Source of the DNA: Gemmatimonadota bacterium
GTDB lineage: Bacteria > Gemmatimonadota > Gemmatimonadetes > Gemmatimonadales > GWC2-71-9
Length of the DNA stretch: 64,000 nt
Assembly (NCBI GenBank): GCA_039588295.1
Contig: JBDHAB010000005.1
Location: forward strand, 1 to 64,000
Reading direction: 5' to 3'
Positions 12,685-30,646 of the stretch are shown here, piece by piece; within the stretch, counting starts at the first letter, position 1, and each line of letters opens with the position of its first letter. The position numbers were made by a program, and so were the translations under genes. The notes under the pieces were generated by a model. That model was not told where the DNA came from and did not search any database. It was given only the letters and a program-made list of their open reading frames with translations.

Positions 12685-12930
12685 TCACTCCGATAGCTTC
12701 TTCGGGTCACCCCCACCCGACTCGCCGGACGGTGCGTCAATCTGGCGTGGCGACGTCCCGCTATCGTCTTCCTTCTCGATGCCGTCTTTCATGTCGCTGA
12801 TGCTGCGTTTGAACTCGCGAATCCCCTTACCCATCGACGACCCAATCTCCGGCAGACGCTTTGCGCCAAACACCAGCAGCGCCACGAGTAAGATGATGAG
12901 GAGTTCGGTCATCCCAAGATTGAATGGCAT
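12685..12930 (-). CDS. tatA: Twin-arginine translocase TatA/TatE subunit
   Basis: LGMTELLIILLVALLVFGAKRLPEIGSSMGKGIREFK. Confidence 0.95.
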   Translation of the reverse strand: MPFNLGMTELLIILLVALLVFGAKRLPEIGSSMGKGIREFKRSISDMKDGIEKEDDSGTSPRQIDAPSGESGGGDPKKLSE

Positions 12931-18360: not shown

Positions 18361-20030
18361 TCCGCCCCCTCATGCATGGGAAGGTCGAGCCCGTGGCGGC
18401 GTGCTGCATCGACGGCCTCGGGATACCCGGCGTCCGCATGGCGCACAATGCCGATCCCGGGATCGTTGTTGAGCACGCGCCCCAATCGCTGCGCCGCCGC
18501 AGGCGTTCCATCCGCCACGATCACCTGACCGGCGTGGAGGCTGTTGCCGATCCCCACGCCACCGCCATGGTGAAACGACACCCACGACGCTCCTGAGACG
18601 GCATTGAGCAGCGCGTTCAGAATCGGCCAATCCGCAATCGCGTCGGACCCGTCGCGCATCCCCTCGGTTTCACGAAACGGAGACGCCACGGATCCAGTAT
18701 CGAGATGGTCACGGCCGATTACGATCGGTGCCGTAATCTCACCACGCGCCACCAATTCATTGATCGCAAGGCCGAACCGCGCGCGCTCACCCATGCCCAG
18801 CCAACAAATCCGTGCGGGTAGCCCTTGGAACGCGACGCGCTCGCGTGCCTTGCGGATCCACCGGGTGAGGACCGCGTCCTCGGGGAACAGCTCCAGCACC
18901 AGGTCGTCGGTCCGATAGATGTCTTCCGGATCGCCGGAGAGCGCGACCCACCGAAACGGCCCACGCCCTTCGCAGAACAGCGGTCGGATATACTCGGGGA
19001 CAAAGCCCGGGATGTCAAAGGCGTCCGCCACACCGGCGTCCTGTGCCTCGGCACGAATGTTGTTCCCGTAGTCGAACGCAACGGCGCCCTTCCGTTGCAG
19101 CTCCAGCATTGCCCGGACATGAGCCGCAATGGACTCCCGCGCCCGGCGAACGTATTCGGCCGGATCGGCAGTTCGCAGCGTCGCAGCTTCCTCGAGCGAT
19201 ACGCCGGCGGGAACGTACCCGTTCAGCGTGTCGTGAGCCGAAGTCTGATCGGTGACTACATCCGGCACCCACCCCCGCTCAGCCATCTCGGGCAGGACTT
19301 CCGCACAATTGCCCAATAGGCCGACGGAGATTGCCGTGCGCGACTCGCGTGCGTTCGACACGAGGCGCCACGCTTCATCCAACGAATCGGTCATGACACC
19401 TAGGTACTTCGTGTCCAGCCGCCGCTGGATGCGGGTGGGATCCACCTCGACGGCGAGAATGGCACCGCCGTTCATCGTCGCCGCAAGCGGTTGCGCACCA
19501 CCCATCCCACCGAGGCCACCGGTGAGGACGACTCGGCCTGCGAGCGAACCGTCGAACCGGCTGCCCGCCACGGCGCCAAACGTCTCGTAGGTGCCCTGGA
19601 GAATCCCCTGGGTTCCGATGTAGATCCAGCTGCCGGCAGTCATCTGCCCGTACATGGTTAAGCCGGCCCGTTCCAATTCCCTGAACGCGTCCCACGTGGC
19701 CCAGCGACCCACCAGGTTGGCGTTCGCGATCAGCACGCGCGGGGCATCCGGATGGGTGGGGAACACACCCACGGGCTTTCCCGATTGGACGAGCAGCGTC
19801 TCACCGTCCGCCAGCCGCCTCAGTGCCGCACAGATGGCGTCGAACGCCTCCCAACTGCGTGCGGCCCGGCCGGTGCCTCCGTAGACGATGAGATCCTGCG
19901 GCCGCTCCGCCACATCCGGATCCAGGTTGTTCATCAGCATGCGCAGGGCCGCCTCCTGGATCCAGCCGCGACACGAAATCGTCGAGCCGCGTGGAGCGCG
20001 CACTTCCCTGCTCGCTGCTGCCGTTGTCAT
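18357..20030 (-). CDS. hutU: Urocanate hydratase
   Basis: [71 protein letters not shown]. Confidence 0.98.
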
Positions 20031-21568
20031 ACCAGTGCCTCCTGGGCAAGCACGGCGGTCACCCGTTCAAGATCTGGCGTCAGCGGGCGATCGGCTTCCA
20101 GCGCCGGGACAAGCTCGCGAATGAGTCCATGGAGCAGCCGCACGCCCCGGCCTGGCTTGAGCGGGTCGCGGAAGTCCAGTGCCTGTGCCCCGGCGATGAG
20201 CTCGCCCGCCACGACCCGTTGGGCATTGCGCAGAATGCGGCACGTCTTGGACGCCGCCGCCATGCCCATTGGTACGACGTCTTCCTGGTTGCCGTCCGTG
20301 GGGATCGATTGCACGCTGGCCGGCGTGCACAGCGACCGCGACTCCCCAACCAAGCTCGCCGCCGTGATCTGCAGCATCATGAGACCCGAGTGGAGCCCAG
20401 CGTTCGGTGCCAGAAACGCAGGCAGTCCCTGAGACAGATCGGGGTTCATCATGCGGTCCACGCGCCGCTCGGCCAGACCCGCGAGGGTGGTCAGCGCAAT
20501 CGCCAACACGTCGTGCGCCATGGCAACCGGCTGGCCGTGAAAATTGCCGCCCGACAGAATCTCATCGCCGAACACCAGCGGGTTATCGGTCGACGCATTG
20601 AGCTCGATGTCGACAATCCCGGCTGCGAACTCGATGGCATCGGCCACGGCACCCAAGATCTGCGGTGTACACCGCAGGCTATAGGCGTCCTGCACGCGCG
20701 GGTCGTTGTCACGATGTGATTCACGGATCTCGCTCGCCGCCAACATCTCACGCAACAACTCGGCGGCGCGTACTTGTCCCGGGTGCGGACGGGCGCGCTG
20801 AATCCGCTCGTCAAACGGAACCGGCGTCCCGAGCAGCGCCTCGACACTCATTGCCGCGGCTCCCACGGCCGTCCGCCAGAGGTTCCGGGCATCGTGCACA
20901 ACGAGGGTCAGGATGGCGGTCTGCGCCTGCGTACCGTTGATGAACGCGAGCCCTTCCTTGGCTTGAAACTCGATCGGCGTCATTCCAGCGTTCCGCAGCG
21001 CGGCGGCAGCCGATACTGTGCCGTCTGCCCCGCCGTCCGTTGCCTGCGCGGCGGAGCCGGGGACCGGGGGCCGGGAGACCTCCCCCCCACCCATCATGGC
21101 ATGGGCGATATGCGACAGCGGCGCCAGGTCACCGCTCGCACCAACACTACCCTGCTCCGGGACGATCGGGTGAATGCCCGCATTGAGCATGTCCGCGATG
21201 TGCCGCACCACGAGGGGACGAACGCCGCTCGTCTCCCGGAGCAACACGTTGGCTCGGAGCAACATCGTGGCGCGTACGACATCCACAGGCAGGGGATCCC
21301 CCACCCCAGCCACATGGCTTACGATCAGGTTGCGCTGCAGCTCGAGCAGTTGGTCCGATGGAATACGCACGTTTGCGAGCCGACCAAAACCCGTGTTTAC
21401 TCCATAGATCGGCCCACCCTCTGCCAGCATCGCCTCCACCGCCTCCCGCGACCGCTCGGCACGCGCCGCCGCCACGGCGCTGACGTCCACCCGCACCTGC
21501 TCCCGCGAAACGGCGACTACGTCGCCAACATGCAGGGAATCGCCCGTGAGCGTGACTGTGTCCGTCAT
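20027..21568 (-). CDS. hutH: Histidine ammonia-lyase
   Basis: [22 protein letters not shown] (MIO triad ASG), [29 protein letters not shown]. Confidence 0.96.
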
Positions 21569-21828: not shown

Positions 21829-22989
21829 CTACTTCCGCTTCACGATGATTCCGGTGTCACCCGCCGTGAAGATCCCACCGCCAACCGAGAGCTCCGGGTT
21901 CCCCGGATCCGTCTGGTAACTCCACGAAAAGATCATGTAATTGGTGCCGACGTGGGTGACGTGCACTCCACCAAACCGGGCGAACCCATCACCGCCATCC
22001 ATCTCGAAGACGTAGCCGTACAACGGCAGGGCCGGAATCGCCGCTGGCGAGAAACCCGTTTCCGGTGCGACGTCGATCGAGGTCAGGTCGTCAATCGGCC
22101 CGCTGCCGTACGGCGCCACCGTGGTTCCCGCGCGAATCGGCAGCAGGAAGAAGTTGTCGTTGGCGTCTCGCGTCACGAGGAAATCGATGTCGGTTCCCGT
22201 CGCGCTCACGACTCTGCCAAGCTCGTTTGGACCTGCCAAACCGTCGTTATTCAGATCTTCGAAGAACCGAAAGCCGGCGGAGTCCGTCCTGAACTCAAGC
22301 GCCGTCATGATGACGTTGCGGGCGTCCGGCCGTGGCGTATCGGCACGAATCGGCGACCAGAGGCTCTCGAAGCCCTCAATGCTCTCGGCCGAAACACCGA
22401 AGCAGCGCGGCTGTCCGTTTTCCAGCACTCCAGCCAGAAACTCGGGCGCGACGGTCGTTCCCTCGAGCGACCAGAATTCATCGCACAGGTTGTCATCCAA
22501 CGAGTACGCCGCACTGTAGACACGGTACTGCTTGAAACCTTCGGGAGCCGTGGTGAACGCGTTGTCCGCCCACGCGAGATGGATCGCCCCATCCAGACTG
22601 GTGCTCAGCAACGATGCTGGGCTCTCGAGTCGCAGTCGCTCGTCGACCACCACGGCGTCGCTCGGCGGGCTCTCCACCCCATCGACATTGACGGACACCA
22701 CGTAGTACTCAAGGTCGGGTTGCCCACCGTCGTGGAACGTGTTGGAGGTCGTCTCGCCGCGGAGTCCGAACCCCGCCGCGTTGTCCGGACGCGAGTAGAT
22801 GCGGTAGACCTCAAGGTTCCCATCCTGTACGGCGTCCCAGAACAGGAGAATCCCCAGCGGGAGATCAGGATCTCCACTGGGTTCCAGCTCATAGCCCAGG
22901 TTCTGGGGCGTCTGAACTGGGGGCGCAAGCGGGTCGTCGCAGGCGACGACCGCGAGAGCCACGAGCAATCCGACGGCTATGCGTCGCAT
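21829..22989 (-). CDS. Hypothetical lipoprotein with fibronectin type III-like repeats
   Basis: MRRIAVGLLVALAVVAC lipobox; P.NL...ILLFWD.....YRIY and YYVVSVNVDGVES..S pattern, repeated (IHLAWAD...YRVY...VSAESIEGFES). Confidence 0.75.
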   Translation of the reverse strand: MRRIAVGLLVALAVVACDDPLAPPVQTPQNLGYELEPSGDPDLPLGILLFWDAVQDGNLEVYRIYSRPDNAAGFGLRGETTSNTFHDGGQPDLEYYVVSVNVDGVESPPSDAVVVDERLRLESPASLLSTSLDGAIHLAWADNAFTTAPEGFKQYRVYSAAYSLDDNLCDEFWSLEGTTVAPEFLAGVLENGQPRCFGVSAESIEGFESLWSPIRADTPRPDARNVIMTALEFRTDSAGFRFFEDLNNDGLAGPNELGRVVSATGTDIDFLVTRDANDNFFLLPIRAGTTVAPYGSGPIDDLTSIDVAPETGFSPAAIPALPLYGYVFEMDGGDGFARFGGVHVTHVGTNYMIFSWSYQTDPGNPELSVGGGIFTAGDTGIIVKRK

Positions 22990-23028
22990 GTCAATATCCC
23001 TCGGGCGAGTTCTCGGGGAGCCCAAAAG

Positions 23029-23044
23029 TGCACGGAGCGTGCCG
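23029..23044 (-). promoter_or_regulatory. Putative sigma54 (-24/-12) promoter upstream of the lipoprotein gene
   Basis: Minus strand cGGCACGctccgTGCA = GG-N10-GC, 40 nt before ATG 22989. Confidence 0.5.
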
Positions 23045-23172
23045 CGTCGGTCATATGGTCTAAGCCGTTGTCTAGTAGTCAATTACGTTGCTGCAGCTGT
23101 GCCCCGAAGTGTCACCCATTGGGGACAGACCGGGCACTCGGGCTCGCCTCGGAGGCGCGCGAGGATGCGATG

Positions 23173-26100
23173 CTACCCGCCCTGGCGCACCGTCCGCTGG
23201 TCGTATTGGAGTTTCAGCTCCGGCTGGTCGGTCAGCGAGATGTAGAAGTTGAACGCGAAGTTCCCGTTCGGGGCCTTGAGAAACGCAAACGTGGCGCGCC
23301 AGCGGTGGAGATCGCGGTCGAGTCGAACCACGTGCTGGCCAAACCGGTCGAGCGTGAAGTTGTACTGCGTACTCCACGACACCGACCAATGGCTGGTCGG
23401 TGAGAACCCCAGGGTGAGCCCGACAGTACGGTTTCCAGGGGTCTCGATCAACTCTCCCGCGGCGTCCTGTCGCGGCCGGCTTCGTTGATCGTCGAAGGTG
23501 ACCGATGCCTGAAACCCACGACCTCGCCGCGTGGGCACTTGGTCGAAACTCCGATCCAGCCTCGTGGGTGGTCCGAGCCCGGACCCCAGCGGCATCACGG
23601 GGTCTTCGGGATCGACCACCTCAAGGTCCTCGGGATCGGACGGCGGCGGGGTGTCACCGCCCGTGAGCAACGCGAAGATGGACGCGAAGGTCGCAGCTGA
23701 CAGACTGAACCGAGCCGACAGCGACGTCAGGAACGGGTCGAAACCGGTCGTGTCGAAGCCGACCTGACCGTCCCACAGGTCGTGTGACGTCGAGAACGAG
23801 AACCCTGGCAGCAGATCGCTGGTGAACCGATTCGTGAGACGTTGCGTGGTCCAGCCCGTGCGTCCTGGCTCTTGCGCCTGCTCGAAATCGTACTCGATGG
23901 GCGAGGTCTGAATGCTCAAGAGTTTCCGCTTCTGTGCCTCGCGGCCGCCGGTGGTGTCGCCCTGAGCCGGCCGCATCTTGCCTTCGAACGTCTGCGACAG
24001 CCCCAGGCCAATTCGGTGCAGCGCCGGACTCTCGCGGACAGGGTTCAGCCCGGTCGGATCGAGCGCCCGCGCGTACGCCTCAGGCACCGTCGCGGACGGG
24101 GCAAAGGACCAACTGACCAACGGTGACACGGCGTGACGGATGCGGCTCAGGGGCCCGAACCCGGGGAAGAACCCGAAGAACGTCGGTGACAGACTCGCGC
24201 TGAACGACAACCGTTTCCCCTGCGCCACGAAGTCGCCACCGGAGAAGCGATTCCGGAGCAGGAATGCTCCTCCCGTCGTGTTCCGGATCCCCACCGTCGG
24301 CTGGAGCTTCCAGCTCGACGGAAACAGAATGGGCAAGTTAATGCCCGTATTCCAGTCGATCTCGGTCCGGAAGTCCTCGCTATAGTACCGCGTCACCGAA
24401 TCACCGGGGGTTGCCGAGTCCGGCAGCACGAGCGGTGCCGGTGGCCGAGAAGTCCAGAAATCGGAGACGGTGAAGTCGTTGGCCCAGTTCCACCGACCGA
24501 CCCGAAGCGGGGTACGGAACGACAACGTGGTCGTGCGCGAGTCGATCAGGAGCGTGTCAAAAATTTCCTCACCACCAACTGGAGGCTGGGGAATCGCGAT
24601 TCCCGGGCCTTGGTCCAGGGTTCGTGAGTTCGTAAGCGAGAGCGCTGGTGACCACGTCACGTTCCGCGCGATCGAGATCGGGGTGGGCGTCAGGCTCAGG
24701 CTAGGCAGGGTCTGCGTGGCGGTGCCGTTGCTCAAGTCCTGGGAGTGGTTTCCCCCGAGCGTGACCGTACCCCACGAGAACTGCTTGCTGAAGTTGACGC
24801 GGCTCGAAAGTGTCGCCGTCTGGAGAAACGGGTCCACGGAATTCCGTTGGACCACCCGTGCACTGGTGGCGTAATCGACGTTGGCCGTGAGTCGGGTGCG
24901 TTGGTCAAAGCTCTGCTGGTGATTCCACTGCAGCCGCATCGACCGGCCACCGGGTTGGTCACCCTCGCCGTTCTCGAAGATCCAGGAGGCCGCCACACCG
25001 CCTGAGAGGAACCGGTTCAGCCACCGATAGCGCAGTTGGCCGTTGAACCCCACGTAGTTCCCCGAGAACCAGTCGATGGACGCCTGAAAATCCGTGTATT
25101 GGCTGATGGCGAAGTAGTACCCGATGTTCGAGATGTGGCGGCGATAATTGTCATTCGGGCGCACGAGATCGTTGAATCCGAACCGCGGCACGAGCATGCC
25201 GCTTCGCCGCCCGGGCCGCACGTCCTGAAACAGGAAAGGAAGCCATAGGACGGGAACGTCGCGCACGTACAGCACCATCGGCCGCGCGACCATGATCGTG
25301 TTGGTCACCCATTTCACATTGCCCGCGGTGATGTGATAGTGCGGCGTCGGGTGATCACAACTGGTGATCTCGTTCTTTGCGCCGTATATCCGCGTGGAAC
25401 CGGAATCGACTTCCAGACCGCCGCGCAAATACCACGTGACACCGGACTGCACGAAGCTGGTGAGCGCGCTCGGGACGGTACCGCGGTGCTCACAGGTGTC
25501 GTACCGCATGTCCTCTCCGACGAGCACCGTGCCGGCGTCAAACAGGGTGGGCTTCGGCGTGCCGCCGGCGACGAGGCGACAATCCGACTCCTGGAAGCTC
25601 ACCGTTCCCGCCTCGAGCGTGCTGCCTTCCCGATCGACCAGGGCCGAGCCGACGAGAACGACCTCGCGCCGCTCACCAAAGAGCGTAATGCTGTCACCGG
25701 CGTACCGAGTGATGACGTAGCCGGAGGAGCTGAGCAGCGCCTGAATCACCGAGTCGGGACTGGGGAATCCACGACTGGGTTTGGTGGGCAGGCCGAGGAG
25801 ACGCGCCGCCGCCGTGTCGACCGGCTGAAGGACGCTGTCTCCCTGCACACGGGCAAGCGTGTCGCGCACCGCCACGCTGTCGCGGCGCGGGCGCCGCAGG
25901 CGCTCCTGAGCCTCCGCACCGGCACTGACCACCATGAACAGCAGCACGACCGACGCCGTCCTGCCGATCGTCCCGCCGGCCCGGCGCTTGAGCAGGAGGC
26001 GCGACGTCAGTATGCCGAGCTCGTAGAGCAGCAACAGCGGCCCCGTCATCATGAGCATCGAAAGGGGGTCGGGCGGAGTGAGCATCGCGGCGACGATGCA

Positions 26101-26718
26101 GGCAAGCACGAGCGCAATCGGACGTTGCTTGGCAAACGTCCGGGGAGTCACCACGCCCAGCGTCGAGAACAGCACCATGACGATCGGAAGTTGGAACATG
26201 ATCCCGAACGCCAGGATCATCTGCAGGGCGAATCCGAAATACGCATCGGCCGTGTAGATGTACTCCAAACCGCCAAGTCGCTCCCCGAACGCGGTCAGGA
26301 TGCGAAACACCGCGGGCAGGACCCAGAGGTAGGCCATGAGCACACCCGCCAGGAACAGGCCAAGGCCCGCGATCAGGGTCGGCACGATAAAGCGCTTTTC
26401 GTGCTCATACAGCGCCGGCGCAAGGAACCGCCACACCTGCGCGAAGATCACCGGCGAGGCGAGGATCACGCCGATGCTCAGGGCGAGTTTGAGCGTGATG
26501 ATGAAGGGGTCGGTGGGGCGGGTGACAAACAGCCTCCCTTCCGGGAGGTACGGCGCGATCGGCGCCTTCATGAGATCGAAGATGTCGAACTGCTGCAGCA
26601 GGAAGAACCCCACCACGCTACCGGCGACGAGCGCAGCCAGGCTCCACAGGATACGCCACCTCAGCTCTTCGAGGTGATCCAGAAAGGGCATCTCGCCCTT
26701 GGAGATTTTCGGTCTCAT
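23173..26718 (-). CDS. tatC: Fusion ORF: TatC (aa 1 to about 245) + internal signal-peptide-like segment + LptD-like LPS-assembly outer-membrane protein (aa 271-1181)
   Basis: TatC motifs EMPFLDHLEELRWR, QVWRFLAPALY.HEK, FQLP, TPPDP, LYELGI. LptD-like motifs TSCDHPTPHY, PMVLYVRDVPVLWLPF, RRSGMLVP, GYYFAISQYTD, C-terminal RDLHRW...FNFYISL. One uninterrupted frame. Confidence 0.88.
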   Translation of the reverse strand: MRPKISKGEMPFLDHLEELRWRILWSLAALVAGSVVGFFLLQQFDIFDLMKAPIAPYLPEGRLFVTRPTDPFIITLKLALSIGVILASPVIFAQVWRFLAPALYEHEKRFIVPTLIAGLGLFLAGVLMAYLWVLPAVFRILTAFGERLGGLEYIYTADAYFGFALQMILAFGIMFQLPIVMVLFSTLGVVTPRTFAKQRPIALVLACIVAAMLTPPDPLSMLMMTGPLLLLYELGILTSRLLLKRRAGGTIGRTASVVLLFMVVSAGAEAQERLRRPRRDSVAVRDTLARVQGDSVLQPVDTAAARLLGLPTKPSRGFPSPDSVIQALLSSSGYVITRYAGDSITLFGERREVVLVGSALVDREGSTLEAGTVSFQESDCRLVAGGTPKPTLFDAGTVLVGEDMRYDTCEHRGTVPSALTSFVQSGVTWYLRGGLEVDSGSTRIYGAKNEITSCDHPTPHYHITAGNVKWVTNTIMVARPMVLYVRDVPVLWLPFLFQDVRPGRRSGMLVPRFGFNDLVRPNDNYRRHISNIGYYFAISQYTDFQASIDWFSGNYVGFNGQLRYRWLNRFLSGGVAASWIFENGEGDQPGGRSMRLQWNHQQSFDQRTRLTANVDYATSARVVQRNSVDPFLQTATLSSRVNFSKQFSWGTVTLGGNHSQDLSNGTATQTLPSLSLTPTPISIARNVTWSPALSLTNSRTLDQGPGIAIPQPPVGGEEIFDTLLIDSRTTTLSFRTPLRVGRWNWANDFTVSDFWTSRPPAPLVLPDSATPGDSVTRYYSEDFRTEIDWNTGINLPILFPSSWKLQPTVGIRNTTGGAFLLRNRFSGGDFVAQGKRLSFSASLSPTFFGFFPGFGPLSRIRHAVSPLVSWSFAPSATVPEAYARALDPTGLNPVRESPALHRIGLGLSQTFEGKMRPAQGDTTGGREAQKRKLLSIQTSPIEYDFEQAQEPGRTGWTTQRLTNRFTSDLLPGFSFSTSHDLWDGQVGFDTTGFDPFLTSLSARFSLSAATFASIFALLTGGDTPPPSDPEDLEVVDPEDPVMPLGSGLGPPTRLDRSFDQVPTRRGRGFQASVTFDDQRSRPRQDAAGELIETPGNRTVGLTLGFSPTSHWSVSWSTQYNFTLDRFGQHVVRLDRDLHRWRATFAFLKAPNGNFAFNFYISLTDQPELKLQYDQRTVRQGG

Positions 26719-26745: not shown

Positions 26746-27513
26746 TCAACGATCGGGATTGCCGAGCTTGGTCCGTGCGAGCTGCGCTTCTTCCGACCGC
26801 GGATAGCCCGCGATCACCCGTTGGTAATACACCTCCGCCGCCCGCTGGTCCCCACGCCGTTCGGCGATGAGCCCCAGCCGGTAGAGTCCCGTCGGAGCCC
26901 TGCGCGAATCGGGATAGTCGCGTACAACCCTCTCGTACGCCCGCGCCGCCGAATCCGGATCGGTCGCTTCCCATGACTCGCCCAGGAAGAACCTCGCGTC
27001 TGCGCTCAGAGGATGGCCCGGGAAATCCTCCAAGAACTTCTGGAATCCGGCCCGCGCCGTGGCCGGGCTGCCGCGCCGCAGCTGCTCCAGCGAGAGATCG
27101 TACAGCTCCTGCGACCCAATCGCTCCGCCCGCCGCCGGGGCCTCCGCGCCGGCGGGGACAGCGGCTCCAGCCTCGCGTAGCCGCGTGTCGACCTGCGCTC
27201 GTAGGTCCGTGAGCCGCTGCTGGCTCTGGCCCGTCAGTTCCTGGATCTGCACGAGCTGTCGCTGCACATCGGTCATGTCGCTGCGGACGTCACCCTGGAA
27301 CGCGGCGAGCCGACGCTGCAGGAGAGCCAGGGAATCGAGCACTTGCTCCTGCTGGGCAAGAATCTGATCGAGCACGACAGCCCGCACCGAATCGGTGCGG
27401 GCTGTCTCCGCTTGCATCTCTTGCAGTCGCTCCTCTACACGCCGCACATCGCCCTTGAGCGCACATGCGCCGAGGGCAAGGGTTGCCGCAGCGAGAAGCG
27501 AGAGCTTCGTCAC
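26746..27513 (-). CDS. cpoB: Tol-Pal system protein YbgF/CpoB (lipoprotein, coiled coil + TPR)
   Basis: LGAC lipobox, coiled coil, LYDLSLEQLRRG...FLEDFP...ARFFLGE TPRs; immediately downstream of pal. Confidence 0.85.
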   Translation of the reverse strand: MTKLSLLAAATLALGACALKGDVRRVEERLQEMQAETARTDSVRAVVLDQILAQQEQVLDSLALLQRRLAAFQGDVRSDMTDVQRQLVQIQELTGQSQQRLTDLRAQVDTRLREAGAAVPAGAEAPAAGGAIGSQELYDLSLEQLRRGSPATARAGFQKFLEDFPGHPLSADARFFLGESWEATDPDSAARAYERVVRDYPDSRRAPTGLYRLGLIAERRGDQRAAEVYYQRVIAGYPRSEEAQLARTKLGNPDR

Positions 27514-28152: not shown

Positions 28153-29529
28153 TTACGGTTGTGTCGGCTCCGAAATGCGAGGCGACCATGCCGGCAATCT
28201 CGCGTCCCCGACGGTCGTGAGCTGACGGACTCTTCCAGTTTCGATATCCATGACCCAAATCTGACGCCTTCCCGTTCGACTCGAAATGAACGCGACGTGC
28301 CTCCCATCGGGCGCCCACGTCGGATCTTCGTTGCGACCCGCGCTGGTCAGTTGACGGACCACCCGAGAGCGCGTGTCCATCACGAAGACCTGCGGACTTC
28401 CGGCGACGTCGCGGTGAAAGGCGAGTTGCATACCGTCCGGCGACCACTCCGGCGCATTGGAGCTGCCGGTTACTCCGTAGTCGAACGGCGCGAACAGCTC
28501 CTGACCCGTCCCGTCCACCGACATCACATAGATCTGCGGAAGCCCGACCCTGTTCGACACGAACGCAATCTGGCGTCCGTCCGGGCTGAACGTGGGAGAT
28601 AGGTTATCGGAAAACCTCCCTACCGTCAAGCGCTCTAAGCAACAGTCACGTGCGAGGTTATAGCGATACACGTCGGTCCCCCCCTCGCCACTGCGCGTGA
28701 ACGCGATGCTCTCGCCGTCCGGGGCGAAGGCCGCGGTGTAGTTGAGGAGCTCCGCCGTAGGGCGCACGGTGCGCTCGGAACCCGTGCCGACCCCGTGCAT
28801 CACGAGCCGACCCCAGCCACTCGCCAGCGCGGTATAGACGAGCTGAGCTCCCGACGGGTGCCACGCGGGCGAGAACGCGGTCACCCCCGCAGGGGAAACC
28901 GCCGTGAGCGCCGCACCGTCCGCATCGATGCGGTGCAGGGTGCCATGCTGAATGAAGAGGAGGCGGGAAGCGGCAAACCCCGGCTCGCCCGTCGCCGCCC
29001 GCAGGACCTCGTCGGCCGCCCGATGCACCGCCAGGCGGAACGCGGGCGCCGACGGATCGGTCACCGTGAGCGGGATCCGCCCTCGCTGAGTTTCCCCACG
29101 GACGTCATAGACCGTCACGGCCAGCTCGCTGGAATCCCGCCCTGGCAGCACCGCCACCGAGAAATCGGCCCCGAGGGCAATGTACAGCGAGTAGTTGACG
29201 AATACGTCGTCGGTCGCGCTCACCACTGGTCCGGCGGCCCCCCCGCGCGTGGCCGAGACGCCCAGCACGATGCTGTCGCCACCCGGCAGCGTGATCATCT
29301 CGAACTGATCACTGTAGTCCAAATCACGGCGCAGGATTGCGCGCACGGAATCCAAGAGCGCCGTGCGCGCTCCGCCCAGCACCAGCATTCCGGGACGCAT
29401 CCCAGGCGTGTAGGTAATGCCGATCCGCACACCCTGCTCGACCGGAGGTACCGTGTCTTGCGCCAGAGCGAGACCGGGCACTGCCAGCAACCCCAGCAAG
29501 ACAAACGACCGAGTGAGATAACGTGTCAT
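28153..29529 (-). CDS. tolB: TolB-like beta-propeller periplasmic protein
   Basis: Signal peptide ALA-Q; ILRRDLDYSDQF TolB_N-like; repeated P.FSPDG/P.WSPDG PD40 repeats; ATG 29529 overlaps the upstream stop. Confidence 0.9.
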   Translation of the reverse strand: MTRYLTRSFVLLGLLAVPGLALAQDTVPPVEQGVRIGITYTPGMRPGMLVLGGARTALLDSVRAILRRDLDYSDQFEMITLPGGDSIVLGVSATRGGAAGPVVSATDDVFVNYSLYIALGADFSVAVLPGRDSSELAVTVYDVRGETQRGRIPLTVTDPSAPAFRLAVHRAADEVLRAATGEPGFAASRLLFIQHGTLHRIDADGAALTAVSPAGVTAFSPAWHPSGAQLVYTALASGWGRLVMHGVGTGSERTVRPTAELLNYTAAFAPDGESIAFTRSGEGGTDVYRYNLARDCCLERLTVGRFSDNLSPTFSPDGRQIAFVSNRVGLPQIYVMSVDGTGQELFAPFDYGVTGSSNAPEWSPDGMQLAFHRDVAGSPQVFVMDTRSRVVRQLTSAGRNEDPTWAPDGRHVAFISSRTGRRQIWVMDIETGRVRQLTTVGDARLPAWSPRISEPTQP

Positions 29530-30230
29530 CGGACCTTGGATGGGTCGAAGAAGAAGCTCACTGGCAGCACATCGGCGGGATACCCCTCGGGAAGGGGACC
29601 GAACGCATTGGCGTTCGCTGCTGCCTCGATCGCGCCCTGTGCCTCGAGGTCGAAGCCAAAGCTTCCGGATCGGGTGAGGAACTGGAAATTGGAGATGGAA
29701 CCGTCGCGGTGAATGAAGAACTGCACCTCGGCCCGGAGCGAAACGTTGCCCTCGGGTCGCCGCCAGCGGCGATGCACCTGAGCGACGATGTTTCGCAAGT
29801 ACTCCGGATGCTGAAAGTCGATCCCGCTCGTGCTGACCGTGACCGGATCGGAGCCGGTGGAGGGCTCGACGTCGGGTGCCGGTTCCTCCGGCGGCGTGGT
29901 GCGTGGCGCCGGTTCTGTCTCGTCCGGTTGCAGCGTCGGCGGTGGTGGCGTCTCCGAGACCGATGTCCGGCGCGGGCGCTCGGTCGCGACCGGGGCCGGC
30001 TGCTCGGCGGGGCGTTGCACCGTCTCGGGCGCCCGGCGGCGCTGCGGCTCGGGCCGCGGCGCCGCGACGAGTTGCACCGCATAGACCGGCGGGGCGACGC
30101 GTCTCACCAAGGAAGGGGAGGAGAACAGCCCCGCGGCGGCAACGACGTGAATCCCCAGCGTGGCAGCCACGGCGGCACCAGCCGAACCATCTCGCCGCCG
30201 TCGCCGTCGACTCGTCCGCCGGAGCCTCAT
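29526..30230 (-). CDS. TolA/TonB-like energy transducer
   Basis: TM helix with His (TLGIHV), Pro-rich spacer, TonB_C-like C-terminus (YLRNIVAQVHRRW, FFIHRDGSI, SGSFGFDLEA, FGPLP). Confidence 0.85.
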   Translation of the reverse strand: MRLRRTSRRRRRRDGSAGAAVAATLGIHVVAAAGLFSSPSLVRRVAPPVYAVQLVAAPRPEPQRRRAPETVQRPAEQPAPVATERPRRTSVSETPPPPTLQPDETEPAPRTTPPEEPAPDVEPSTGSDPVTVSTSGIDFQHPEYLRNIVAQVHRRWRRPEGNVSLRAEVQFFIHRDGSISNFQFLTRSGSFGFDLEAQGAIEAAANANAFGPLPEGYPADVLPVSFFFDPSKVR

Positions 30231-30646
30231 CGCCCGATCTCCTCCGCCTCCGCCACAAGCCCCACATTCTGAATCCCCGCAGCTCGAATGACCGCAACGA
30301 CGCGCAGGACCTGTCCGTAGTTCGCACGTTCGTCACCACGAACGTACACGCCCTCTGGCTGGCGGGCGGCGACCATGGCCGGAAACGCGGCCCGGAAGTC
30401 CTCATACGAAAGCGCGGTCTCGTCCACGAAGATCTGCCCGCTCCGATCGACGGACACCCACAGTCCCTCCCTCGGCTGCAGCGGCCGCGCCTCTGCTCGC
30501 GGCAGCTGAACGTCGACACCACCCTGCATGATTGGCGCGGTGATCATGAATATGATGAGGAGGACGAACGCGACGTCGACCAGCGAGGTGACGTTGATGT
30601 CTGACGTAGGCTGAAGCTGCCCGCGGCGAAATCCGAGGCCACGCAT
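30227..30646 (-). CDS. tolR: TolR/ExbD family protein
   Basis: INVTSLVDVAFVLLIIFMITAP, VDVQLP, VRGDERANYG. Confidence 0.92.
   Translation of the reverse strand: MRGLGFRRGQLQPTSDINVTSLVDVAFVLLIIFMITAPIMQGGVDVQLPRAEARPLQPREGLWVSVDRSGQIFVDETALSYEDFRAAFPAMVAARQPEGVYVRGDERANYGQVLRVVAVIRAAGIQNVGLVAEAEEIGR

Follow-up and report, generated by a model that had tools for sequence, protein, structure and literature searches.

A TatC-LptD fusion gene of Gemmatimonadota with a predicted internal signal peptide at the join

We analysed a 64,000-nucleotide stretch of DNA (the window: positions 1 to 64,000 of the forward strand of contig JBDHAB010000005.1, GenBank assembly GCA_039588295.1) from an uncultured member of the Gemmatimonadota (order Gemmatimonadales, lineage GWC2-71-9). 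On its minus strand, positions 23173..26718 form a single open reading frame (ORF) of 1181 codons that begins with ATG and has no stop codon inside, and that joins a TatC, the receptor of twin-arginine translocation (Tat), to a protein resembling LptD, the lipopolysaccharide (LPS) insertase of the outer membrane. A first-pass annotation had described this uninterrupted frame as a complete TatC (residues 1 to about 245), a junction peptide followed by Q271 and 911 C-terminal residues resembling LptD. All three parts were found in the reading frame, and a hidden Markov model scan placed the domain borders in agreement with that description (Table 1).

The true start of the protein is probably M10 (26691) and not the first ATG, because M10 is identical in 105 of 105 aligned fused homologs, public gene calls give the product a length of 1172 residues and the alignment to Aquifex TatC begins at this methionine. 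The 105 fused proteins used here and below are the window's own and 104 of 110 public two-domain homologs; left out of the alignment (A1) were P0002, which is the window's own protein, and five sequences of odd length (P0017, P0046, P0091, P0097 and P0121).

The N-terminal part is recognised by two TatC models, PF00902 (residues 14-227, E = 4.6e-64, 216.5 bits against a cut-off of 25.1) and the NCBIfam tatC equivalog TIGR00945 (203.5 bits against 132.7). An AlphaFold model of the whole chain, for which 105 homologs were used (mean predicted local distance difference test score, pLDDT, 79.5) shows a confident TatC, with pLDDT mostly 75-93 over residues 11-246, followed by a beta-jellyroll and a very large barrel. 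Foldseek matches of the TatC part in the PDB include 4b4a (target TM score 0.82) and 9e01_A (0.81), at 35-40% identity, and TatC residues are still invariant across the fused clade. This ORF is the only TatC match in the whole genome, which is 96.3% complete in 160 contigs. The genome also encodes a sole member of the TatA/B/E family, located about 13 kb from tatC and not adjoining it, and 99 proteins with twin-arginine-like N-termini, 20 of them with the strict motif (a KK control gave 4). Judged by these genes, TatC appears to have the TatA/B-type partner and the twin-arginine substrates with which it works. TatC has six helices, with both ends in the cytoplasm. The one departure found here lies just after helix 6, where the C-terminus is not free and the frame continues into a signal-peptide-like segment and the LptD part.

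The C-terminal part matches the LptD_2 family PF19838 in two stretches (E = 1.3e-39, 136.6 bits against a cut-off of 22.5; best over residues 477-680). NCBIfam LptD models match it weakly (E = 1.9e-7; 29.6 and 22.1 bits against cut-offs of 683 and 944; residues 449-617). Its top structural matches in the PDB are full-length LptD chains (8h1s_A, E = 1.4e-26, 936 aligned columns), and the strands of the model reproduce the LptD architecture of a jellyroll followed by a giant barrel. The classical LptD family PF04453 and the LptD_N family PF03968 gave no match at E <= 0.001 anywhere in the genome and were likewise absent from the Pfam scan of this protein. The ORF is the only PF19838 match of the genome, and a search of 14 control genomes with PF19838 returned a match in Bacteroides thetaiotaomicron only. 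LpxC and LptF/G are encoded in the genome; no LptE partner turned up, though no search was aimed at LptE. Both halves of the protein are presumably needed, given that they are the sole TatC and the sole LptD-type gene of a genome that also encodes TatA, twin-arginine N-termini, LpxC and LptF/G.

Table 1. Features of the fused gene and of related genes in the window (residue numbers refer to the 1181-codon frame)
Feature	Position	Strand	Basis
Whole stop-free ORF: TatC, junction and LptD-like part	23173..26718	-	stop codon at 23173-23175
M10 codon, probable true start (product of 1172 residues)	26689..26691	-	M10 invariance, gene call, Aquifex TatC alignment
TatC domain, residues 14-227, six-helix core	26038..26679	-	PF00902, TIGR00945, fold matches 4b4a and 9e01_A
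End of TatC helix 6 and cytoplasmic basic cluster, residues 228-253, the latter a putative n-region	25960..26037	-	sequence; comparison with relatives; K/R counts in homologs
Predicted h-region and c-region of internal signal peptide, residues 254-270, ending A-E-A	25909..25959	-	conservation in 105 homologs
Q271 codon, proposed first residue of mature LptD, pyroglutamate candidate	25906..25908	-	Q conservation; genome-wide Q enrichment; glutaminyl cyclase gene
Arg/Pro/Asp-rich, poorly conserved N-terminal segment of mature LptD-like protein, residues 272-336	25711..25905	-	variable columns; low pLDDT; also in separate-gene relatives
Beta-jellyroll, residues ~337-500	25219..25710	-	model strands; alignment to full-length LptD chains; weak NCBIfam LptD matches
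Outer-membrane beta-barrel, residues ~528-1175	23194..25137	-	PF19838 at 24676-25290 and 23881-24222; model and Foldseek LptD matches
ybgF/cpoB, lipoprotein with TPR repeats, upstream	26746..27513	-	TIGR02795, 93.1 bits against cut-off 90.1
Downstream lipoprotein-like gene, 417 codons, no known family	21829..23082	-	no Pfam or NCBIfam match
tatA, sole TatA/B/E-family match in the genome, partner of TatC	12766..12918	-	PF02416, E = 1.4e-19

At the join, the junction peptide KRRAGGTIGRTASVVLLFMVVSAGAEAQERLRR reads as the first-pass annotation had described it, with the CAG codon of Q271 at 25908-25906. Our signal-peptide calls were made with home-made heuristics, and the predictor recognises the n-, h- and c-regions of a Sec signal peptide in this segment. 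Its basic n-region (K244, R245, R246 and R253) is followed by 17 uncharged residues up to the site A268-E269-A270/Q271, which has small residues at positions -1 and -3 and a residue other than proline at +1. Since it occupies residues 244-270, behind a complete TatC, the predicted signal peptide is an internal and not an N-terminal one.

The same pattern recurs throughout the 105 fused proteins, over a divergence reaching down to about 45% identity. Position -1 is small in 104 of them (A in 84, G in 15, S in 5), position -3 is A, L, G, V, S or T in all 105, a proline or glycine lies at -7 to -4 in 102 and glutamine occupies +1 in 104. Position -2, on the other hand, is filled by 14 different residues, and the sequence of the h-region varies freely. 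The first 22 residues after the equivalent of E233 hold 3-7 lysines or arginines in 105 homologs, and the uncharged stretch before the site has a median length of 17-18 residues, which looks signal-peptide-like and not anchor-like. This is the pattern that signal peptidase I (SPase I) imposes, as read from the aligned proteins, and the putative cleavage motif appears to have been under constraint since the fusion. The genome has a single SPase I gene. When the genome was scanned crudely for internal signal peptides behind membrane-rich N-terminal parts, six candidates emerged, of which this ORF is the only one with a textbook AxA followed by Q; the other five resemble ordinary transmembrane segments.

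The glutamine at +1 fits a wider preference within the genome. Of 206 predicted signal peptides, 85 (41%) have a glutamine directly behind the first AxA of the c-region. When every small-x-small motif in the c-region window is counted, glutamine makes up 15.4% of the residues that come next. The background for both figures, taken from the same motif inside mature regions, is 3.1%. Judged by these frequencies, Q at +1 is a mark of cleaved substrates in this organism. A glutaminyl cyclase gene of the PF05096 type is present as well. Within the window, the TolB ORF (28153..30522, minus strand) provides another example of the enrichment.

The protein might instead stay in one piece, with the hydrophobic segment as a permanent seventh transmembrane helix and an inner-membrane TatC tethered through a disordered Arg/Pro-rich linker to LptD. 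The cut is deduced from sequence patterns, and a poorly conserved segment of about 65 residues (271-336, with pLDDT below 50 for residues 248-301) could act as the tether. An anchor, however, needs neither small residues at -1 and -3, nor a P/G breaker, nor Q at +1, yet these are kept in 102 to 105 of the 105 proteins, and the uncharged stretch is short for an anchor (17 residues from R253 to the site in this gene). The disordered segment is present in separate-gene relatives too and is thus not a fusion-specific tether; it carries repeated D-S/D-T motifs (window 25711..25908, minus strand), common to fused and separate forms. We know of no precedent for BAM assembling a barrel that is covalently held in the inner membrane. 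The repeated switches between fused and separate genes described below further argue that the mature products are identical, and we regard an uncleaved protein as improbable.

We asked how widely the fusion occurs, a comparison that the first-pass annotation had suggested along with read mapping across the junction. We examined 40 relatives from the order; in the 31 of them that carry both parts on one contig, these lie next to each other on one strand. Reading the junction DNA in these 31 genomes and in the window's own (32 in all) showed it to be fused, in the same frame and with no stop, in 15 and separate in 17. When 151 genomes were sampled evenly over the phylum, a stop-free match crossed the join in 60 of the 72 genomes of the window's family, including the window's own genome (G000) and the unpublished G084. 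Two further genomes of this family, G094 and G069, gave split matches because of long diverged linkers, and their fetched DNA shows the fusion, which brings the family total to 62 of 72. In sister family f2 the fusion was found in 2 of 31 genomes (G035 and G116). A continuous TatC-LptD match was seen in none of the other 48 of the 151 genomes, a test that fused genes with diverged linkers could escape. The gene is thus fused in most of the family, and separate adjacent genes are the rule in sister families. Both PF00902 and PF19838 were found in 110 of the best 120 public homologs; most of these 110 are named just 'TatC', and their labels are Gemmatimonadota or Gemmatimonadales.

This distribution bears on whether the stop and the start that part two ordinary genes have simply been lost, through a mistake in assembly or sequencing or through a recent mutation that inactivates the gene. 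The assembly is a draft in 160 contigs, and read support takes the form of Logan contigs that cover the junction in short pieces, none of them spanning the full 1001-base stretch. These pieces, from two runs, nevertheless cross the join without gaps or indels: X1 record 2 spans 25795-26010 and shows no differences, and X3 record 7 spans 25925-26166. The recurrence of the stop-free junction, in 62 of the 72 genomes sampled from the family and in 110 of the 120 best public homologs, which come from many sources, also speaks against an error, as do the strong constraint on both halves, with many invariant columns, and their standing as the sole TatC and sole LptD-type gene of the genome. An artefact or pseudogene is therefore extremely improbable; the fusion is genuine and old.

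The separate-gene relatives indicate how the join was put together. In the 17 separate loci, the LptD-like gene begins with a start codon of its own, and its product has a hydrophobic N-terminus that resembles a signal peptide and mostly ends in a small-x-small motif and then Q. TatC in these relatives carries the same basic cluster after helix 6, followed by a tail of 15-35 residues and a stop. Most fused forms have lost the TatC tail and the n-region of LptD, such that the basic cluster of TatC leads straight into the h-region. As an alternative, the first-pass annotation had suggested that the KRR of the cluster might be a vestigial twin-arginine element. We discard this idea, since the cluster belongs to TatC, following helix 6 in the stand-alone TatC of separate-gene relatives, and the LptD signal peptides of these relatives have no twin-arginine motif.

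Several loci represent intermediate arrangements. In L024 (genome G040) and L090 (genome G064, from another class of the phylum), tatC and the LptD-like gene share a frame with a single stop between them; a single point mutation would be enough to fuse them. The two genes of G006 overlap, with stop and start sharing the bases ATGA. Compared with their fused congeners, G004 (L010) and G006 (L011) carry 35 and 26 extra bases, which hold a TGA stop and an ATG start. These could reflect re-separation by an inserted segment or independent deletions in the fused congeners, between which the tree does not decide (Shimodaira-Hasegawa-like approximate likelihood ratio test, SH-aLRT, 88, with open forks). 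G004 also has an R-x-I/L-G-T/S motif in both the TatC tail and the LptD signal peptide, which hints at a small duplication. The linkers that G035, G094 and G069 retain are longer, and these fusions look younger or less trimmed.

A tree of the LptD part shows that the fused or separate state changed at least 4-5 times. The clade of the window's family is fused in 14 of 18 members, with separate forms nested within, and the fusion in G035 is independent. Repeated switching of this kind is expected if the mature products of the two arrangements are equivalent. A second, stand-alone TatC occurs in two fused-gene genomes, G035 (L028 and contig C2:141617-142330) and G076 (C1:2128335-2128634); of the 60 family genomes in which the junction match is continuous, the other 59 have one TatC-containing match each.

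LptD could also be made, for the most part, from a nested gene, through independent initiation at a GTG or ATG near the join that gives it a signal peptide of its own, with the full-length read-through as a tolerated by-product. The first-pass annotation had noticed no start codon ahead of the n-region, and indeed no in-frame ATG, GTG or TTG lies between the end of helix 6 and R253 in this gene. The sole start-type codons near the join are GTG V258, ATG M262 and GTG V263. All three fall within the h-region, and starts there would leave a 13-residue peptide without a charged n-region, though GTG V258 does have an AGGA 11 nucleotides upstream. We extended the comparison to the DNA of 70 fused junctions, counting as usable any in-frame ATG, GTG or TTG upstream of the h-region with at least one K or R after it; L066 (G141), whose site was unparsed, and L090 (G064), which has an in-frame stop, were dropped from this statistic. 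A usable start is present in 55 junctions, against 62.4 expected from codon frequencies of the TatC part, and absent from the remaining 15, this gene among them. The share of GTG among valine codons is 0.59 at the junctions versus 0.62 elsewhere in TatC, no alignment column has a conserved start codon and methionine occurs anywhere in the linker in 27 of the 105 fused proteins. Four congeners (G001, G002, G003 and G008) have an ATG right before the h-region with purine-rich codons of the basic cluster ahead of it, an arrangement that would suit a nested start.

With start codons below chance, GTG not preferred and 15 of 70 junctions lacking any usable start, these sequences give no sign of selection for an internal start. 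Moreover, tatC has no stop codon of its own, such that every ribosome making the genome's only TatC also makes the LptD part. Each TatC is therefore made as part of a long chain, and the full-length chain would still need to be dealt with even where LptD is also initiated separately. We thus consider a nested gene an unlikely main source of LptD.

From the features of the join we infer that the ORF probably encodes a membrane polyprotein that is cut by signal peptidase I. The first-pass annotation had proposed that an extra helix after TatC acts as an internal signal sequence from which SPase I releases LptD, and the sequence-level predictions of this proposal have all come out in its favour. 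In the mechanism that we envisage, the six TatC helices would insert and leave the C-terminus in the cytoplasm. Residues 254-270 would then enter the Sec translocon in an N-in/C-out orientation, as a signal peptide does, with the Arg/Lys cluster after helix 6 of TatC serving as the n-region. The LptD part would be threaded to the periplasm, and SPase I would cut between A270 and Q271. Mature LptD, its N-terminus probably converted to pyroglutamate by the glutaminyl cyclase of the genome, would move on to the outer membrane, and the signal peptide would stay attached to the C-terminus of TatC, as a seventh hydrophobic segment of short length. The gene itself probably arose from the adjacent tatC-lptD pair of other Gemmatimonadota through loss of the stop codon, the intergenic bases and the start codon. 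We propose that the fusion is tolerated because its end products equal those of separate genes.

Several observations weigh against release by signal peptidase. The signal-peptide calls come from home-made heuristics, and the structural model, with pLDDT below 50 over residues 248-301, is uninformative at the join, also on a packed seventh helix. Right behind the proposed cut, the protein encoded here is rich in Arg, and in 105 homologs the first 12 mature residues carry a net charge between -2 and +4 (median +1). An Arg-rich mature start hinders Sec export in E. coli; it is, however, common to the separate-gene relatives too. Reversions to separate genes (G004, G006, G009 and G018) could mean that the fusion is costly to some degree. 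Finally, the 55 of 70 fused genes that hold a start-type codon able to give a full signal peptide might add internal initiation to the release of LptD from the polyprotein.

A separate question is whether the fusion brings an advantage. Selection for 1:1 synthesis of TatC and LptD is possible, and we do not count it as supported since the fused or separate state has flipped at least 4-5 times. A broader version would make the fusion a selected device, in which tying LptD to a TatC that inserts co-translationally would force co-translational export of the roughly 900-residue barrel precursor, fix a 1:1 output and leave the signal peptide as a seventh helix that modifies TatC. We find this version unlikely. 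If true, it would be the first natural bacterial polyprotein with two products sorted to different membranes, and growth of the outer membrane may be coupled through it to sites of Tat export.

The fused gene lies downstream of a tol-pal cluster. Upstream on the same strand are, in order, TolQ (MotA_ExbB), TolR (ExbD), a TolA-like TonB_2 protein, TolB (PD40 repeats), Pal (OmpA domain) and YbgF/CpoB, and the ybgF/cpoB stop codon falls 27 nucleotides ahead of the first ATG of the ORF. The first-pass annotation had placed the ORF at the end of a tol-pal operon. The tol-pal gene order holds, but the ORF is not the last gene, as it is followed by a conserved lipoprotein-like gene that comes directly after the LptD-like gene in 11 of 11 loci of relatives (L005-L015; L008 covers query residues 32-176 only). 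The product of this downstream gene is a candidate partner of this type of LptD, possibly with an LptE-like role. Further along the minus strand (20027..21568), an ORF of 513 residues contains an A-S-G-D-L-A-P-L stretch in its translation, which is reminiscent of the active-site motif of ammonia-lyases (HAL/PAL).

If the protein is cut as proposed, a whole bacterial family builds two essential envelope machines, the Tat receptor and the LPS insertase, from one translation product. The locus would be a clear natural example of a cellular housekeeping gene with an internal signal peptide. It has a bearing on how freely Sec signal peptides work in the middle of a chain, on whether a giant barrel precursor can be exported co-translationally and on the tolerance of TatC for a permanent extra helix. 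There is also a consequence for annotation: public records label these proteins of about 1170 residues simply 'TatC', and the organism's only LptD is thereby overlooked. Our literature search, judged by titles and abstract openings, found no description of a TatC-LptD fusion.

The closest known arrangement is the pair of separate, adjacent tatC and lptD (LptD_2) genes in other Gemmatimonadota (families f2 and f3, and an f10 genome of another class), which has the same order and strand and also lies downstream of tol-pal/ybgF. The pair shares with the fusion an LptD signal peptide that mostly ends in small-x-small and then Q, and the basic cluster of TatC after helix 6. The pair differs from the fusion by a TatC tail that is 15-35 residues long, by a stop codon and by a separate start codon for LptD, with the two genes often differing in frame or, as in G006, overlapping.

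Comparison with proteobacterial LptD (PF04453; 4q35, 5iv9 and 8h1s) shows the same succession of an N-terminal jellyroll and a very large C-terminal barrel, in a genome that likewise encodes LPS synthesis and LptF/G. Identity in structural alignments, however, is 9-12%, and the family is PF19838 (LptD_2) instead of PF04453/PF03968.

The Q-rule of Bacteroidetes describes a glutamine at +1 of SPase I substrates that is cyclised to pyroglutamate (PMC5837995, PMC10653852). The rule is said not to hold throughout the Fibrobacteres-Chlorobi-Bacteroidetes (FCB) group (PMC5837995), and that paper makes no mention of Gemmatimonadetes. Our findings resemble the rule in the enrichment of Q after predicted SPase I sites, in the presence of a glutaminyl cyclase gene and in the conservation of Q271 in the fused proteins (104 of 105). 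They differ in that the phylum is another one, the cyclase is of the PF05096 type and pyroglutamate at Q271 is a candidate. The enrichment nonetheless suggests that the rule extends to Gemmatimonadota, where Q at +1 would provide a sequence-only indicator of real cleavage sites.

For the proposed processing, the nearest bacterial counterpart is FbcH of Bradyrhizobium japonicum, which was reportedly described around 1991 by Thony-Meyer, James and Hennecke as a cytochrome b-c1 polyprotein split at an internal signal peptide. As in the present gene, FbcH is said to comprise a polytopic inner-membrane protein with a cytoplasmic C-terminus, followed by a signal-peptide-like segment and an exported protein, with the cut attributed to signal peptidase. 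The products of FbcH, however, reportedly share one inner-membrane complex, whereas TatC and LptD would reach two membranes and serve unrelated machines, Tat export and LPS insertion. In viral polyproteins, such as those of flaviviruses, host signal peptidase cuts at internal signal sequences as the chain alternates its membrane topology. Those cuts take place in the eukaryotic endoplasmic reticulum and in products of viral genomes, whereas the gene described here unites a pair of cellular housekeeping genes. The kind of mechanism is thus already known, and what would be new is a membrane polyprotein, split by signal peptidase, with products bound for two different membranes.

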